Source: a virus. From it: a stretch of DNA of 25,331 nt. The stretch lies in the IMG/VR virus record IMGVR_UViG_3300010355_001591; one strand, written 5' to 3'. The notes below the pieces were generated by a model that searched no databases, was not told where the DNA came from, and saw nothing but the letters and a program-made list of their open reading frames with translations. The position numbers were made by a program, and so were the translations under genes. Of the stretch, positions 258-25,331 are shown one piece after another (position 1 is the first letter of the stretch; each line of letters opens with the position of its first letter).

Positions 258-295
258 AAATTGGAGGCAATAAAAATGGATGAAAAAGAAATAAA
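258..295 (+). repeat. 38-bp direct repeat (RBS plus first codons MDEKEI), copy 1
   Basis: AAATTGGAGGCAATAAAAATGGATGAAAAAGAAATAAA, identical at 948-985. Confidence 0.9.
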
Positions 296-428
296 AAGCT
301 GGGAAATGATAAATGGAATAATAGACACAATAGATTACGAAAGGATTAAGGGGATAAGAAATAAAAACCAGAATTTAGCAGACCATAAAGCAAGAATGGC
401 ATATAGAGAGATGGAAAAAATAATCTAA
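276..428 (+). CDS. Hypothetical protein, 50 aa (MDEKEIKSWEMINGII...)
   Basis: Translated by hand; GGAGG RBS; not in the ORF track. Confidence 0.7.
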   Translation: MDEKEIKSWEMINGIIDTIDYERIKGIRNKNQNLADHKARMAYREMEKII

Positions 429-475
429 CTCTCTATTATTTATTTTTAGAAAAAAAACAAAAATGGAGGTGTAAA

Positions 476-742
476 ATGAAAGCAAATGAAATAAAAACCG
501 TAAGTGAAGTCGATGGTGTTGCAGTAGAGAAAGAGGAGGTAATTGTAGATATGCAAAAAGATGGATGGGTTAATTCAGATGATGAGATCGAAATATTCGG
601 AGATGCTAAAAATCAAGAAGAAAGAGCAAACAGAATGATCGCTTTTTTAAGGAGATATCAGAGCGTTCTGCAAGATGAAACCATCGCCGAAATAGAGGGG
701 GCAGAAGCTCTCTCTATCAAACAGAGAAACACGAAGGTGTGA
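476..742 (+). CDS. Hypothetical acidic protein, 88 aa
   Basis: GGAGGTG RBS; stop overlaps the next gene. Confidence 0.75.
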   Translation: MKANEIKTVSEVDGVAVEKEEVIVDMQKDGWVNSDDEIEIFGDAKNQEERANRMIAFLRRYQSVLQDETIAEIEGAEALSIKQRNTKV

Positions 743-948
743 AAATGGACAAGATAGAACAACATTTTGAATGCGACCTTGATTGGTCACAATCTTATGC
801 CCTTTTCGAAAAATTGGGCGAGGCCATAATATTGAAAAAAATGCAGGAATTAAACGATGAAGAAAGACAAAACTTTGAAATGAGTGTCCAATTTAATATA
901 GAGTTTTACACACGATCAATCTTTGCGTGGCGACATGAGGATGATTAA
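739..948 (+). CDS. Hypothetical protein, about 69 aa (GTG start, or ATG at 745)
   Basis: AAGGTG RBS; operon position. Confidence 0.7.
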   Translation: MKMDKIEQHFECDLDWSQSYALFEKLGEAIILKKMQELNDEERQNFEMSVQFNIEFYTRSIFAWRHEDD

Positions 949-985
949 AATTGGAGGCAATAAAAATGGATGAAAAAGAAATAAA
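948..985 (+). repeat. 38-bp direct repeat, copy 2
   Basis: Identical to 258-295. Confidence 0.9.
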
Positions 986-1280
986 TATGCGGGAGGTTGA
1001 ATATTTCAGCTTCTTCGGGGCTGAGATAGCAAGTGAATATTTCAGCCAGGATGCTGGGATGCTGGAATTTTTAGGACTGTTAGACGAGGATGAAAAAGAA
1101 AGCCTTGTGCTCGATATCATGGTCAACCATGATAAAGAGACGGCACAATGGAGCATCGGAAACTGGAGGGGTGAGACGGTGCACCTATCTATGAAAACGA
1201 GCACGATCGATAACTCACGCTGGGAGGAGGACGATTATTATGGCGTGATGGAGTTCCTTAGATCGACTGGAGTGATCTAA
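966..1280 (+). CDS. Hypothetical acidic protein, 104 aa
   Basis: ATG at 966 follows GGAGG; the TTG at 951 used by the track lies within the RBS. Confidence 0.75.
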   Translation: MDEKEINMREVEYFSFFGAEIASEYFSQDAGMLEFLGLLDEDEKESLVLDIMVNHDKETAQWSIGNWRGETVHLSMKTSTIDNSRWEEDDYYGVMEFLRSTGVI

Positions 1281-1282
1281 AA

Positions 1283-1387
1283 ATGGAGTATGAGTATTGG
1301 AGTTTAGAACAAAAAATAGATCGGCTGGAGAGAAAGCTACGGGAGATCGAGACGAGATTGTTAACTTTAGAGGAGATGATAATATAA
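1283..1387 (+). CDS. Small coiled-coil protein, 34 aa (MEYEYWSLEQKIDRLERKLREIETRLLTLEEMII)
   Basis: Translated by hand; GGAGTGA RBS; heptad Leu/Ile pattern. Confidence 0.6.
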   Translation: MEYEYWSLEQKIDRLERKLREIETRLLTLEEMII

Positions 1388-1408
1388 AAATAAAAATGGA
1401 GGTTAAAA

Positions 1409-1594
1409 ATGAGAGCAATATTTGAGAATGTGAAAGAGGCAATAGCGTGCAAAGTAGATAAGTACGGGCATATCAACGGGTTTAAAACCTATGCAGGGAA
1501 ATCCTGCATAGTAATAATACTTGAGGAGGATACAAATGAGAATTGCGAACGAGATACAACGGAGACGGGTGAGAAGGATTGTAAATTTGACTAA
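1409..1594 (+). CDS. Small protein, possibly DUF2080/AbrB-like swapped-hairpin DNA binder
   Basis: GGAGGT RBS; KVDKYGHI...YAGKSCIVIILE pattern; family call is tentative. Confidence 0.5.
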   Translation: MRAIFENVKEAIACKVDKYGHINGFKTYAGKSCIVIILEEDTNENCERDTTETGEKDCKFD

Positions 1595-1895
1595 ACATGA
1601 GATCACGATCGGGAATGTAATTGTCCCTCCATCTGGCAAAGTGATTCGGTGTAAAAAGAACAAACTACTATCTGAGATTGTCGAGTATGAGGGGAAAGAG
1701 ATAGAGGTGTATGAGTATGAGTATAGAGAAGTAAAATCAATACCGGAGCGAGAGGATGGGACGATTTATCTCACGTCTTATCCTGTCGCAAAAATACTCT
1801 GCCGGGATGATATCTATTGCATGGGTGAGGTTGTCAGAGATGAGAGCGGAAGAATACTCGGTGCGATGTGCCTATCAAATTTTGAGAAGAGATGA
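1536..1895 (+). CDS. Conserved phage/CRISPR-linked family protein (NLTxH...PPSG...VRD..GRI.G); candidate Crn4-like ring nuclease
   Basis: IVNLTKHEI, VPPSGKVIR, IPEREDGTIYLTS, RDD, VVRDESGRILG; ATG at 1536 follows GAGGAGG. Confidence 0.55.
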   Translation: MRIANEIQRRRVRRIVNLTKHEITIGNVIVPPSGKVIRCKKNKLLSEIVEYEGKEIEVYEYEYREVKSIPEREDGTIYLTSYPVAKILCRDDIYCMGEVVRDESGRILGAMCLSNFEKR

Positions 1896-1905
1896 TAGGA
1901 AAAAG

Positions 1906-2061
1906 ATGAGTAATATGTTTTTATCAAAACTGCCGCCGTGTACGGCTCGGCTTGGAAAGATGCAATATGGATATGCAATTATATTTTGTGATGTGCTGTA
2001 TTCCAAAATAGATCCTGAAGAATGTTTGATATGCAAATTTAGGCAGGATGTGGAGGGGTAA
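1906..2061 (+). CDS. Small Cys-containing protein, 51 aa (C...C...CLIC), possible Zn binder
   Basis: 3' part of track ORF 1756-2061; start reassigned to ATG at 1906. Confidence 0.55.
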   Translation: MSNMFLSKLPPCTARLGKMQYGYAIIFCDVLYSKIDPEECLICKFRQDVEG

Positions 2062-2208
2062 ATGGGATATGAAATGTTAACAGCGGATGAGAAAAAATAT
2101 TATGTCAAATGTCTAAAAGAGGCAAAAAATATTGTTGGGATATCTGGCGATCCGATATCAGATGCAATATTAATATCTGCAGTATTTTTAAGGCTATCCG
2201 GCCGATGA
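2062..2208 (+). CDS. Hypothetical protein, 48 aa (MGYEMLTADEKKYYVKCLKEAK...)
   Basis: Translated by hand; GGAGGGG RBS; abuts the previous stop. Confidence 0.6.
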   Translation: MGYEMLTADEKKYYVKCLKEAKNIVGISGDPISDAILISAVFLRLSGR

Positions 2209-2327
2209 TAAATGAAGGTGGACTATAAAATGGTAGCAGCTGAATAGCCCTAAATATAATATACATTATAATATTTAAACGTTTCCTTTTTTGTTCTTTG
2301 TATGTATTTTTAACTGGGGGGTAAAAT

Positions 2328-2537
2328 ATGGTAAATAATAAAAAAAATAATGATGAGGACTCCATCGATGATATTCTCGATGATGACGAGTTCGTAAGAA
2401 TGCTCGTATATCTGTTAAAGAGGAAGGCAGGGGATATTGCAGATGAGATGCGTACCGGCAAAGTATCATCTAAAAACGGTGAGATCGTAAAAGATCTCTG
2501 TCAAATGGTTGTTGATCGGGAGAGAGGGGAGAGGTAA
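2328..2537 (+). CDS. Hypothetical protein, 69 aa, translationally coupled to the helicase
   Basis: GGGGGGT RBS; TAATG overlap at 2535-2539. Confidence 0.7.
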   Translation: MVNNKKNNDEDSIDDILDDDEFVRMLVYLLKRKAGDIADEMRTGKVSSKNGEIVKDLCQMVVDRERGER

Positions 2538-3937
2538 TGGATGAGAAAGAGCAGGCAAAAAAGATCGAGTTTTTGGATCGGATTTTGGATTATGACGGCA
2601 ACGAATATCTTGACGAGTTGTGCTTGGATGAGAAATACAGACCAGATATTGGTAAGATCCTTGCACGACTTTTTTCTATTTATAGTTTCAAAACATCAGA
2701 GGATACGGAGACGGTATATTATTTTGATGCTGGGATATATCGAGAGGCTGAGACGTTCATAAAAAACAAGATCGAGGAGATATTTCAAGAGAAGGCGACA
2801 ACGCATCTGGTTATCGAGATTATCAATCACATTAAACGAGCAACGTATGTGCCACGGGAAGAGTTCAACAAAAATAAAAACTATCTGCCTGTGAAAAATG
2901 GATTGATCAATCTTGAGACGTTTGAGATTGAGCCGTTTGATCCAGAGAAGATTTTCACCTTCAAGATAGACGTAGAGTATGATCCCACGGCTGACTGCCC
3001 CCTGTTCAAAAAAACCATATCAGAGGTGGTAGATGAAGAGGATATTCCCGTTCTTCAGGAGTTCTTCGGATACTGTTTGTATCCTGCAATGCCGACTCAT
3101 AAGTCTTTCTGGCTATACGGAGGGGGTAGAAACGGCAAATCAACGGTTGTCAATATTTTAAAATATCTGCTTGGGGATGGAAATTATGCCTCTGTACCAT
3201 TAGATCAATTATACGGGGATAACCGGTTCTCAAAGGCGAATCTGTATGGAAAGATGGCAAACATTATACCTGAACCAAACTCAAAACGAGAGATGGAGAC
3301 CACTGAGTTTAAAATGTTGACTGGTGGTGATACTGTCGATGCCGAGGTGAAAAATAAACAAAAACCAATACGGTTTGTCAACTTTGCAAAGTTCATCATA
3401 CATGGGAACAGATTTCCAACAGTAAAAGATAACACAACCGCATTCTGGGAGAGGATGCTCGTCATCAAATTTCCAAATACATTTTTAGATGACGATCCTG
3501 CAACAATAAAGGATCTCGATAAGAATATTGTTGAAGCAGGTGAGATGCCAGGAATATTAAACTGGTGCATAGACGGACTGAGGAGATTGATGAATAATAA
3601 CTTCAGATTTACGTTGAGCAAGGGTATTGAGGATATTAAACTGGAGTTTATGAAGATGTCAAACTCTGCGATGGCATTTGTCGATGAGGCATGCACACTA
3701 AAGCCTGATCTATGGATTGTAGTAGCAGATCTTTACAATCACTATAAGGATTGGTGTGAGGAGAATGGTGTTGATTCTGTATCCAAGGATAAGTTCTCTA
3801 AAACATTGGGAGATATACCACGAGTCAAATTAGATAGAAAGAGAGTAGATGGTATATTAAAGAGAGTGGCGATAGGTATAAACATAAAAGATGATAATAT
3901 CGATGATAAAGAGGATTTGGATAATTGGATATCATGA
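2537..3937 (+). CDS. D5/P4-family SF3 replicative helicase (D5_N, ATPase, C-terminal winged helix); no primase domain
   Basis: VKNGLINLET...F.PFDP (D5_N); Walker A GGGRNGKST; LYGKMANII; FKMLTGGD; AFWERMLVIKF; LYNHYKDWCEENG. Confidence 0.92.
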   Translation: MDEKEQAKKIEFLDRILDYDGNEYLDELCLDEKYRPDIGKILARLFSIYSFKTSEDTETVYYFDAGIYREAETFIKNKIEEIFQEKATTHLVIEIINHIKRATYVPREEFNKNKNYLPVKNGLINLETFEIEPFDPEKIFTFKIDVEYDPTADCPLFKKTISEVVDEEDIPVLQEFFGYCLYPAMPTHKSFWLYGGGRNGKSTVVNILKYLLGDGNYASVPLDQLYGDNRFSKANLYGKMANIIPEPNSKREMETTEFKMLTGGDTVDAEVKNKQKPIRFVNFAKFIIHGNRFPTVKDNTTAFWERMLVIKFPNTFLDDDPATIKDLDKNIVEAGEMPGILNWCIDGLRRLMNNNFRFTLSKGIEDIKLEFMKMSNSAMAFVDEACTLKPDLWIVVADLYNHYKDWCEENGVDSVSKDKFSKTLGDIPRVKLDRKRVDGILKRVAIGINIKDDNIDDKEDLDNWIS

Positions 3938-9094: not shown

Positions 9095-12000
9095 ATGGTT
9101 GGATTTGAAGCATTCCTGCTGTTGTGCATCGTGTTTCCGGCGATGCTCTTCCTCTTTATCCTAATCCTGTTCTTATTCTTATCGGTTTTTGTGGCGGGAT
9201 CATTCTTTATCTGCGGAACGGCAGTCTGTATTTTGCTTGTAGGAGTCTCACTGATAACAGTTCTCGGTCTCGGAGGCATAGCATCCCTTGTTTGTCTCGG
9301 ATTACTGTTCTGCACCGGACTTTGCATTTTAACGGCCGGATTTTTAACCTGTTGTAGTTTACCGTGCCTACCCTGCTTCTTATGTGCCTTGCTGATACCC
9401 CTATCGTTTGTCGGGGTTGGCATCTGTTTTGCTTTTGCATTATTCGGGCTGGCTATCCCGATCGTCTGTGTATCGATCACGATACCTGCATTTTTAATAT
9501 TCATGTTCTCAATGGCAGTTTTGCCACCCCCGCTATCCTGTCTGCTTTGCGGTTGTCTGTCTGTTCTATATATAATATATCCATTTGGTCTAATTTGTGG
9601 ATCTATTGGTGGTTTAATCGGTTGCTATTTATTCTGCGGGATTGGGTGTCTGCCAGGATGCATTATAGGATGGTTATGTGGGTTATGTCTTGATTTTGTT
9701 CTTATTTGTATAATTATCGTTGGCATCTTCATGTTTATAATAGGAGTCGTCTTCTGTATCATAGGACCATTCTTCTGCATCATAGAACCATTCCTCTGTA
9801 TCATAGGATTCATCCCATGTATCATAGGAGCCTACTTCTGTATCATAGGATTCATCCCATGTATCCTCGGACCCGTCTTCTGTATCATAGGAGCCTACTT
9901 CTGTATCATCGGAGCCGTCATCTGTATCATTCCAATATCTGGTTGGATCATCGGACCCATTATGATTATCATTGGAGCCGTCATCTGTATCATCGGAGCC
10001 TACTTCTGCATCATAGAACCATTCCTCTGTATCATAGGAGTCACCCCATGTATCATCGGAGCCGTCTTCTGTATCATAGGATTCATCCCATGTATCGCAG
10101 GAGCCGTCTTCTGTATCATAGGAGCCTACTTCTGTATCATCGGAGCCGTCTTCCGTATCATCGGACCCATTATGATTATCATTGGATCAGTCCTCATCAT
10201 TATAGGCATCTCTGCCACCTCCGCCCCGTTTTTATGTATCGCTCTCCTCCTCGCCATCGCCGTCTTCATCGTAACCAACATTATCCGCCACATCATTGAA
10301 CTCGTTCTGATCTGCCTCGTCCTTATCATCGTGCCGTGCCTAACCGTGCCGATCGTGGTGTTCGGGTTCCTGGCGATGCTGGGGTTCGCCTTATGTTTGG
10401 GGCTGATACCGTGTGTAGGGTTTGCGGTTTGTATAGGATGGATCATCTGCGGGTTTATTAGCTGGATCGGGAGCTGGCTGGGAATATTTATACTTTATAT
10501 AATATACGTGGCAATAGGAGTGGTATTCTTAATTATATTTGTAATTCTTCTTATTATAGGAATAATTGCCGCTATTTGTCAGATAGTACCTTGTATTGGA
10601 ACACCTTGTTATATGTTTATTGTGGTCTTAATGTTAATAATCCTAACAGTTTTTGCCTTGTTCTATTCAGTATATGGACCGTGCATAATGATTCTTACAA
10701 GTATATTTGGGATTTTTGCTTTCCCATTCTCAATACCAATGTTATTATTTAGCATTCTCTGGTTATTAACGGCACAAACTGTTATGACCATAGTATTTGC
10801 AATGATGATCTTTCTTGGCGCATTATTTTTATCATATTCGCCACTTACGTTTTGCCCGATCATTGGATATATAATGTTTTTCATCTTCGGTATTCCTACC
10901 CTAATTGGTGCAATCATTATTCTTGGCATACTTAGTATTATTTGCATTATCATCGCTGTAATATTTGGTGCTCTAACCCTTGCATCCGCATTCTTCTGTA
11001 ACTGGCTCGGTTTCGTAATCGTCCCGATAATCATCTTCATAGAAAGCATAATCGTTCTGGTAATCCTCGTCTCGATCATCGTGCTTATATCGGCTGCGGC
11101 ACTGCTAACAGGGATAATGTTCATAGTATCGGTCGTGGCAGTATTATGCTGTATCGGAGGGCTATTTGTCTCATCGGCACTCTGCATTACGGGGATAATC
11201 GGATCGATCGCCTGTCTCATCCTATCCATAATCGGGGCGATCTGCATCGTTCTCGGATCGATCTGTTTTATAACATTTGTCTTATCTTGTATCTGTTCGC
11301 TGGTGGTCTGTTCGCCTACCTTATTTCTTGCCTTGCTTTTAACTGGAGCGATCGGTCTCGTTCTGGCGTTAGCCATCATATTCTGTTCTCTGGTTCTCGG
11401 AGTGATGTGTCTTGCCGTAGCTCCGTTAACGCTGACTGTATCAATCATAGCGTTATCTGTGGTTCTATGCGGATTGATTGCCTTGGTGCTGGCGTTATCA
11501 ATTTTATGTGCAGGGATAACCATCGTGCTGGCGTTATGTCTGGCGGCTACACTGGCGATTATTGGCGTCTTCTTATGCTTAGCCATAATTTGTTTATCTT
11601 TGACCGCATTGGTTTTATCACTTGGAATAATCGCATCAGGTCTATTGATAATGCTATTCGGATGTTGTCTATTCCCATTCGGAGGTTTAATCTGTATAAT
11701 ACTCGGATTGAGCGTGGCATGTCTCGGATTAACCGCATTGGTCTTAGCTTTAACAACGCTTTGCTTATCATCGGCAGCCTGTTTACTACTCTCGATCGGA
11801 TTCTGTCTCACCGCTCTTTGTTGCATGATGGCAACCGCCATACCGTTCTTTACGCTTGTAATAATCTGTCTCATACTAACGATTACGTTTATAGCGGGAT
11901 CGGTGCTCTGTCTTTCCCTATTGATCCTGCTGGTTAGCATAACTGGAATTGTTGCTGCCATGCTTCTCTGTCTGTTCGGATTTATTATTTTTGCTCTCGC

Positions 12001-18343: not shown

Positions 18344-18571
18344 ATGGCAAAAGCATTTGACATACAAGGCATAATGTATTTAGCAATCGGATTAATCATT
18401 ACGGGTGCTCTACTTCCAGTATCTTTGAACATGTTCACAAGTGCAGATATTGATTTTACAGGATCGTTGTCTGGGCTTGAGAATCTCTGGTCGTTAATAC
18501 CCATGATGGTTGTTCTTGCAATAGCGATTGCAGTTATATATTACGCCATGGACTCTATGAGAAACCAGTAA
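18344..18571 (+). CDS. Spindle-shaped virus major capsid protein-like (SSV1 VP1/VP3, His1 type), 75 aa
   Basis: Two hydrophobic helices (LAIGLIITGALLP and LWSLIPMMVVLAIAIAVIYY) joined by a short polar linker, matching the VP1 pattern GIVLLPV...LLNLVP..IL; flanked by AT-rich promoter-like and T-rich terminator-like tracts. Confidence 0.75.
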   Translation: MAKAFDIQGIMYLAIGLIITGALLPVSLNMFTSADIDFTGSLSGLENLWSLIPMMVVLAIAIAVIYYAMDSMRNQ

Positions 18572-24691: not shown

Positions 24692-25252
24692 TCATTTGAT
24701 GAAATTCATCTTTATTATATCAGCCTCGTCTTCAGCAGTATAATTTTCTATCGTCTGGATGTTCGTATGCCGTATCGCTTTGGAGATCAGGTTTGTAGGC
24801 ACACCTTCACGCCCCATCTTGGCGATCCATGAATACCGAAGAGAGTGAGTGTTGATCTTGTAATATCGCATTGCAAACATCTTAACCCCATTCAATACCT
24901 TATCAAAAGAATAGTCCAGATCTAAATATTGTTTTTTCACGGCAGACGGTATCTTGATCAGGGCATCAACATCTTTGCCCTTGCTCAGTTTTTTACGTTT
25001 CCGTGCCCTTATCTTTTGTATTCTCTCATTGTTATTTTTGAAACTCAAGACCGCCTCAACAGCCTCTGATATCCTTGAACCGTTCTCTATCTGAGTCAAG
25101 AGAATTGAAGTATAAAGAAGACGGGTAAGAACTGTTGCCGGTACTGGTCTCTTTTTCAATTCGTTATACTCTTTTTCTTTGGCAAGATCTCGAAGGTCAT
25201 TCTTAAACCTCTGATCCCATTCATCAAAATCCAATCTTTTATCCCAGCTCAT
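24692..25252 (-). CDS. Compact tyrosine recombinase (integrase/resolvase), 186 aa
   Basis: Catalytic R (NGSRISEA), K (RKRK), HxxR (THSLRY), H (IRHTN) and Y (IENY). Confidence 0.88.
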   Translation of the reverse strand: MSWDKRLDFDEWDQRFKNDLRDLAKEKEYNELKKRPVPATVLTRLLYTSILLTQIENGSRISEAVEAVLSFKNNNERIQKIRARKRKKLSKGKDVDALIKIPSAVKKQYLDLDYSFDKVLNGVKMFAMRYYKINTHSLRYSWIAKMGREGVPTNLISKAIRHTNIQTIENYTAEDEADIIKMNFIK

Positions 25253-25331
25253 TGTTATCTTATACAGTCATTTATGGATATAAAGATAACACTTTAACAT
25301 CTACACGTTACCATATCACCATAAGATAACA
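25205..25331 (+). repeat. Terminal direct repeat, right copy (circularity overlap)
   Basis: Identical to 1-127. Confidence 0.97.

Follow-up and report, generated by a model that had tools for sequence, protein, structure and literature searches.

Our study describes a full-length homologue of Crn4, a family also catalogued as Unk_01, encoded by a complete circular spindle-shaped archaeal virus. The gene lies at 1536-1895 on the plus strand of the window, by which we mean the whole stretch of 25,331 nucleotides held as virus record IMGVR_UViG_3300010355_001591. Crn4 (formerly Unk01), first described in December 2025, is a homodimeric, metal-independent ring nuclease with a previously unseen fold that, by the published account, has no counterpart in the PDB (Chi et al., Nat Commun 2025, PMC12830947). 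Since the Crn4 family destroys the cyclic-oligoadenylate (cOA) alarm signal of type III CRISPR systems, the viral copy is most likely an anti-CRISPR. We give a probability of about 0.7 to the reading in which the protein would be an active ring nuclease that cuts cA4 and/or cA3 in a hairpin-arm dimer and so acts against type III CRISPR; three rival readings, weighed below, are less supported. Earlier work has already covered the Crn4 family, including its fold and mechanism and its occurrence on phages and plasmids; the new elements here are the carrier, a spindle-shaped virus whose likely host is an Mcr-bearing archaeon, and a variant of the protein at residues K20 and Y82.

The original prediction had placed a protein-coding gene at 1536-1895, and we found it to be real. 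The crn4b-like open reading frame (P0001) runs from an ATG at 1536 to a stop codon at 1893-1895 and encodes 119 amino acids; a Shine-Dalgarno-like GAGGAGG, read directly at 1522-1528 on the same strand, stands 7 nt before the start. The same ATG is also called in two near-identical strains, and the nearest relative (P0008) likewise carries an N-terminal lead-in of about 10 residues. An ORF of 61 aa (1409-1594) with a GGAGG site of its own overlaps the start of crn4 over 59 nt, in a different frame, an arrangement that is also called in the L001 strain. As some phage Crn4 proteins have an N-terminal extension of 60-80 aa, this ORF was considered as a detached extension. That reading was rejected, since BLASTP of all the early small ORFs against 28 long homologues gave no match below E 0.04. 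No Pfam domain was found in ten long Crn4 homologues (204-329 aa).

The match to Crn4 at the sequence level is far beyond chance, with E values from 1e-8 to 1e-29 in comparisons with solved Crn4 proteins. The PADLOC model PDLC01138 Unk_01, labelled there as 'unknown small protein sometimes fused to CARF', matched at E 2.8e-12, with residues 14-116 of the protein covering positions 2-101 of the 103 in the profile. A phmmer search of PDB sequences recovered Crn4b (9r7b) at E 1.2e-8 over residues 13-117, and a profile built from 97 relatives recovered Crn4b at 8.9e-29, Crn4a (9sma) at 2.1e-20 and the Crn4a H15A entry (9qs9) at 2.3e-18, and nothing in the PDB besides Crn4 entries. Pfam and NCBIfam held no model for the protein, Pfam giving only a sub-threshold match to DUF6070, while two PHROGs without an assigned function, 30542 and 21731, matched through their C-terminal parts. 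Crn4b outscored Crn4a in the phmmer, profile, Foldseek and VIA comparisons. The alignment with Crn4b needs no gap and that with Crn4a shows a 12-residue insertion on the Crn4a side, in the hairpin, so that the protein is a Crn4b-type member.

A HMMER search of 1.84 billion cluster representatives returned 1189 relatives at E<=1e-3, and an alignment of 97 of them was used for all conservation counts. Columns N17, R90 and D92 are invariant among these 97 sequences, L18, T19, H21, R38, P70, S81, R101, G105 and G109 are conserved in at least 90%, and all of these columns are kept in the viral protein. The motifs listed in the original prediction are indeed present: N-L-T-K-H is N17-L-T-K-H21, P-x4-G-x2-Y-x2-S-x2-VA is P70-x4-G75-x2-Y78-x2-S81-x2-V84-A85, R-D-D is R90-D-D92 and VRD-x2-GRI-x-G is V100-R-D-x2-G105-R-I-x-G109. 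One of them had been given with a wrong spacing, as PPSG-x2-R; the motif itself occurs (P31-P-S-G, then R38), with three residues rather than two before the arginine. Because the motif positions correspond to invariant columns or to those conserved in at least 90% of the relatives, the motifs constitute the family signature.

The catalytic residues can be placed within this signature. In the characterised enzymes the essential residues, contributed by different subunits, are H15 and R112 of Crn4a and H17 and R103 of Crn4b; the substitutions H15A and R112A each abolish the activity of Crn4a, and T13 is conserved (PMC12830947). In the viral protein, H21 aligns with the catalytic histidine of both, and its column holds His in 96 of the 97 relatives. 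T19, equivalent to Crn4a T13, is Thr in 95, and R101, which sits in the VRD motif and is equivalent to Crn4a R112 and Crn4b R103, is Arg in 93 and Lys in the other four. The codons for T19-K20-H21 (ACT AAA CAT) are at 1590-1598 and that for R101 (AGA) is at 1836-1838, both on the plus strand, as located by alignment to 9r7b (and to 9sma, with column counts, for the former).

Two positions depart from the known enzymes, and we count both against the preferred explanation, although both columns vary within the family. The original prediction had remarked on a Lys in place of the usual Pro before the histidine, and the counts agree, with Pro in 82 of the 97 relatives and Lys in 4, all of these belonging to the viral protein's own cluster. 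Tyr82 stands where Crn4a and Crn4b have Arg after the conserved Ser; in Crn4a this residue, R92, stacks on adenine (PMC12830947). The residue-82 column is variable across the 97 relatives (R 21, A 17, L 16, Y 8) and is therefore not a family-defining position. The rarity of the pre-His Lys, together with the weak cleavage of poly-A RNA by Crn4a (PMC12830947), leaves some room for a protein that, through its Lys-for-Pro loop, would hold cOA as a sponge without cleaving it or would act on a different substrate, A-rich RNA 3' ends for instance. We regard this as very improbable, since the catalytic His and Arg and the remaining conserved columns are intact, G, N, M, R and S also occur before the His in other members of the family, and the nearest relative outside the cluster (59% identity) has Gly there.

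The predicted structure points in the same direction as the sequence in favouring an active ring nuclease. An AlphaFold2 model of the monomer, made on the family alignment (pLDDT 93.5, pTM 0.81), is predicted to have a two-stranded hairpin (39-51/54-66), short paired strands and one short helix (82-88), that is the Crn4 fold of paired beta strands, short helix and extended beta-hairpin arm. A Foldseek comparison with Crn4 had been proposed along with the original prediction. Against the PDB it gave seven significant matches, all of them Crn4 chains (E 9.5e-10 to 2.4e-6, TM 0.61-0.70), while the next match had E 0.6. VIA-align placed Crn4b first (Z 13.3, 108 residues, rmsd 3.6 A) and Crn4a after it (Z 12.3 and 11.8), with no non-Crn4 chain at Z>=2. 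The proposed assignment to Crn4 was borne out by the HMM match, by the profile against solved Crn4a and Crn4b, by the predicted fold and by the catalytic His and Arg. The long hairpin is solvent-exposed in the monomer model, which is consistent with an arm-exchanged dimer.

A mechanism can be proposed by analogy with the characterised enzymes. The protein would pair with itself as a homodimer, each subunit wrapping the other with its long beta-hairpin arm (residues 39-66), and the cavity at the dimer interface would hold a cyclic oligoadenylate, cA4 and/or cA3 being the most likely. There, H21 of one subunit, as general acid, and R101 of its partner would cut the ring without metal, giving linear 2',3'-cyclic phosphate products of the A2>P type. 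Expression during infection would thus clear away the second messenger that the Cas10 cyclase of the host makes, leaving CARF effectors, among them the RNase Csm6, inactive, a logic like that of AcrIII-1 with an unrelated fold.

The replicon that carries the gene could be defined as well. Bases 1-127 of the window are identical to 25205-25331 by script comparison of its ends, an exact terminal repeat of 127 bp representing assembly overlap; the genome is therefore circular, with 25,204 bp. It encodes a 75-aa major capsid protein of the His1 type (18344-18571, plus strand; Pfam PF25665 His1_capsid, E 8e-8, 32.6 bits against a cut-off of 27) and a D5-type primase-helicase (2537-3937, plus strand; Pfam DUF5906, D5_N and Pox_D5). 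Other recognisable genes are a VapE/DnaA-like protein, a Dam methylase and an integrase-like fragment, and most proteins of the genome fall in no known family. In the ORF list, crn4 is inside a co-directional block of small genes (276-3937, plus strand) that ends in the primase-helicase; the small genes from 276 to 2537 are closely packed and crn4 is upstream of the primase-helicase. From this position, the gene may be expressed early, as the original prediction had assumed. No close DNA relative was found among 50,697 phage records, where the sole protein match, at 37% identity, came from a tailed virus assigned to Methanofastidiosa. The homologue there, 140 aa long (BK063668.1, 3914-4336, from mangrove sediment), has no annotation beyond phrog_30542, and it shows that our virus is not alone among archaeal viruses in carrying a Crn4-like gene.

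As a rule, spindle-shaped viruses of archaea do not lyse their hosts, a property that speaks for a different purpose of the enzyme. A temperate or chronic virus might use it to temper the cOA response of its host so that the infected cell survives, much as ring nucleases of cells do, and the integrase-like gene would agree with such a carrier state, as would the resetting of signalling by cellular Crn4 (PMC12830947). Mechanistically the enzyme would be the same and only the selective rationale would differ, and the sequence does not tell the two readings apart; we consider the carrier-state role improbable, and retain the anti-CRISPR role of an active ring nuclease as the preferred one.

Comparison of strains indicates how the gene behaves in its neighbourhood. 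We found crn4 at 97-99% identity across three strains whose flanks are deleted or swapped: a JGI contig (L001) keeps it with 97% protein identity and about 99% DNA identity, and contig DUJX01000016.1 (L004) with about 98% DNA identity. Directly 3' of crn4, at about 1884-2226, both strains diverge from the window, and in L004 the stretch 296-947, with three small genes, is missing. As the flanks differ among strains while crn4 is kept, the gene is retained and its neighbours come and go. The variable spot at 1884-2226 is deleted or replaced in L004, and L001 has another gene there, of 116 aa; the window shows at this spot a likely 51-aa Cys-rich ORF (ATG 1906 to 2061) and a 48-aa ORF (2062-2208). 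An exact direct repeat of 38 nt at 258-295 and 948-985 heads two different genes and comprises the ribosome-binding site GGAGG, the start codon ATG and the opening codons, which read M-D-E-K-E-I; the N-terminus of the primase-helicase (ATG 2537) is likewise M-D-E-K-E. The loss in L004 of the stretch between the two repeats is as expected from recombination between them.

The L004 contig also provides a clue to the host. It is a purely viral contig of 2.9 kb that was binned in the MAG 'Halobacteria archaeon UBA8915', which encodes McrA within the 1.2 Mb covered. Sampled loci of this MAG have 36% GC, close to the 39% of the virus. A related MAG (G004) contains a 14.6-kb contig of a related spindle virus that is syntenic with the structural module of our virus at 31-54% protein identity, and homologues of a 1117-aa hydrophobic protein, of the two genes after it, of an S-layer-like protein and of the capsid protein are seen on it. 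An Mcr-bearing archaeon is thus the likely host, a proposal drawn from binning that occurred twice, in MAGs related to each other. The virus genome gave no hint of the host through a tRNA or an att site.

The original prediction had suggested a check of the host for type III CRISPR, and the candidate MAG has a full type III-A locus, the link between virus and MAG being by binning, with no spacer match. The locus is on a single 9.8-kb contig (L006) and encodes Cas10/Csm1 (597 bits), Csm2, Csm3, Csm4, Csm5, Csm6, Cas6b, Cas1 and Cas2. The GGDD cyclase and HD motifs of Cas10 are intact, and Csm6 has CARF, 6H and HEPN domains and keeps the R-x6-H motif of HEPN. Inverted leader-like copies of about 130 bp, at 1-146 and 9600-9745 of this contig, flank the type III-A cas operon, and both contig ends break within what seems to be a CRISPR repeat, its end being ...ATTGAAAC; this pattern suggests a divergent pair of arrays that the assembly left out. 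BLAST of the whole window against the MAG returned the viral contig and short AT-rich chance matches only, with no spacer. The repeat deduced from the contig end is present in the MAG a single time and, as a 24-mer, is absent from the metagenome collection; an 18-mer of its 3' end led to 80 loci with many arrays, and no spacer in them matches the virus (best 24 nt at 92%). A 48-nt match in another relative MAG, considered as a CRISPR array, was discarded as low-complexity sequence. Cas10/Csm1 matches over the cut-off were present in G004 and, in total, in 5 of the 21 genomes of its group; no Crn4 homologue was found in G004, nor in the 61 genomes searched, except on the viral contig binned in UBA8915.

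The effector in this locus bears on the substrate. Enzymes of the Csm6 class are often activated by cA6. Crn4a cleaves cA3, cA4 and cA6, and Crn4b cleaves cA3 and cA4 and not cA6 (PMC12830947). The lack of cA6 cleavage in the characterised Crn4b, set against an effector of the candidate host that is a Csm6, is counted against our preferred explanation.

The setting of cellular relatives leaves room for a target outside CRISPR. A 114-aa Crn4 homologue, 47% identical to the viral protein (P0013, on contigs L051-L053), has a chromosomal setting. It follows an ABC transporter operon and lies between MNT/HEPN toxin-antitoxin pairs; no cas genes were found within 8 kb. With 1189 clusters and such a setting, the Crn4 family is wider than the CRISPR- or MGE-linked set described before (PMC12830947), and some members may have no part in CRISPR signalling. 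An active ring nuclease aimed chiefly at a non-CRISPR cOA pathway, for example a cA3-signalling system of the CBASS type, would be in line with this chromosomal relative, the closest one examined, which is not beside a CRISPR locus, and with the cleavage of cA3 by both Crn4a and Crn4b, in the description of which the idea that viral copies might counter CBASS is brought up (PMC12830947). However, Crn4a leaves the CBASS signal cAAG uncut (PMC12830947), and the candidate host has a complete type III-A system with intact cyclase motif and Csm6, so we judge a chiefly non-CRISPR target to be quite unlikely. An active ring nuclease directed against type III CRISPR is therefore kept as the preferred reading.

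Viral copies of Crn4 are candidate anti-CRISPRs. Crn4b homologues were reported in 11 of 28,137 phage genomes and in 10 plasmids and 'may function as anti-CRISPRs', and Crn4a relieves type III immunity in E. coli (PMC12830947). Our finding adds to the Crn4 family a virus type and a host domain that are new to it, and leaves the view of how the family works unchanged. As crn4 is part of a complete, very poorly annotated genome, one anonymous gene gains a confident function, and the gene is also a host clue, in that a cOA-signalling type III CRISPR system is to be expected in the host. Furthermore, K20 and Y82 provide a natural variant that may be useful for the study of substrate specificity in Crn4. 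A tempting, although rather unlikely, reading is that spindle-shaped viruses whose hosts are Mcr-bearing archaea, methanogenic or alkane-oxidising ones, would have in this gene their first candidate anti-CRISPR, with the K20/Y82 variant of the active-site loop marking a Crn4b lineage tuned to the Csm6 signal of its host, for example by a gain of cA6 cleavage.

Among known systems, AcrIII-1 (Crn2, DUF1874) has the same expected role, the disabling of type III CRISPR through cOA cleavage. It is a small dimeric metal-independent viral enzyme with a His general acid, specific for cA4 and common in archaeal viruses. It differs from the viral protein in its unrelated fold and sequence; Pfam gave no DUF1874 match for the viral protein and no DUF1874 structure appeared among the structural matches. 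Crn4a from Actinomyces procaprae (WP_136192672; 9sma, 9qs9) is homologous over the full length, with T13, H15 and R112 corresponding to T19, H21 and R101. Its hairpin is longer by about 10-12 residues, an insertion that the viral protein does not have, and Crn4a is associated with Csm6-2/CorA in type III-D loci and has cA6 as a further substrate. The closest counterpart is Crn4b from Hyphomicrobiales (MBK8772583; 9r7b), which belongs to a like length class (about 128 aa versus 119 in the viral protein) and has the same fold at 28-29% identity. Both proteins share the series NLT-x-H ... S ... R-x-D ... VRD-x2-G-x-I-x-G, have the catalytic His and Arg equally placed and are without the hairpin insertion of the Crn4a type. 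The viral protein differs from Crn4b in the Lys for Pro before the catalytic His, in Tyr82 for Arg and in its carrier, which is a spindle-shaped archaeal virus here and a bacterial CRISPR locus, a phage or a plasmid in the case of Crn4b.
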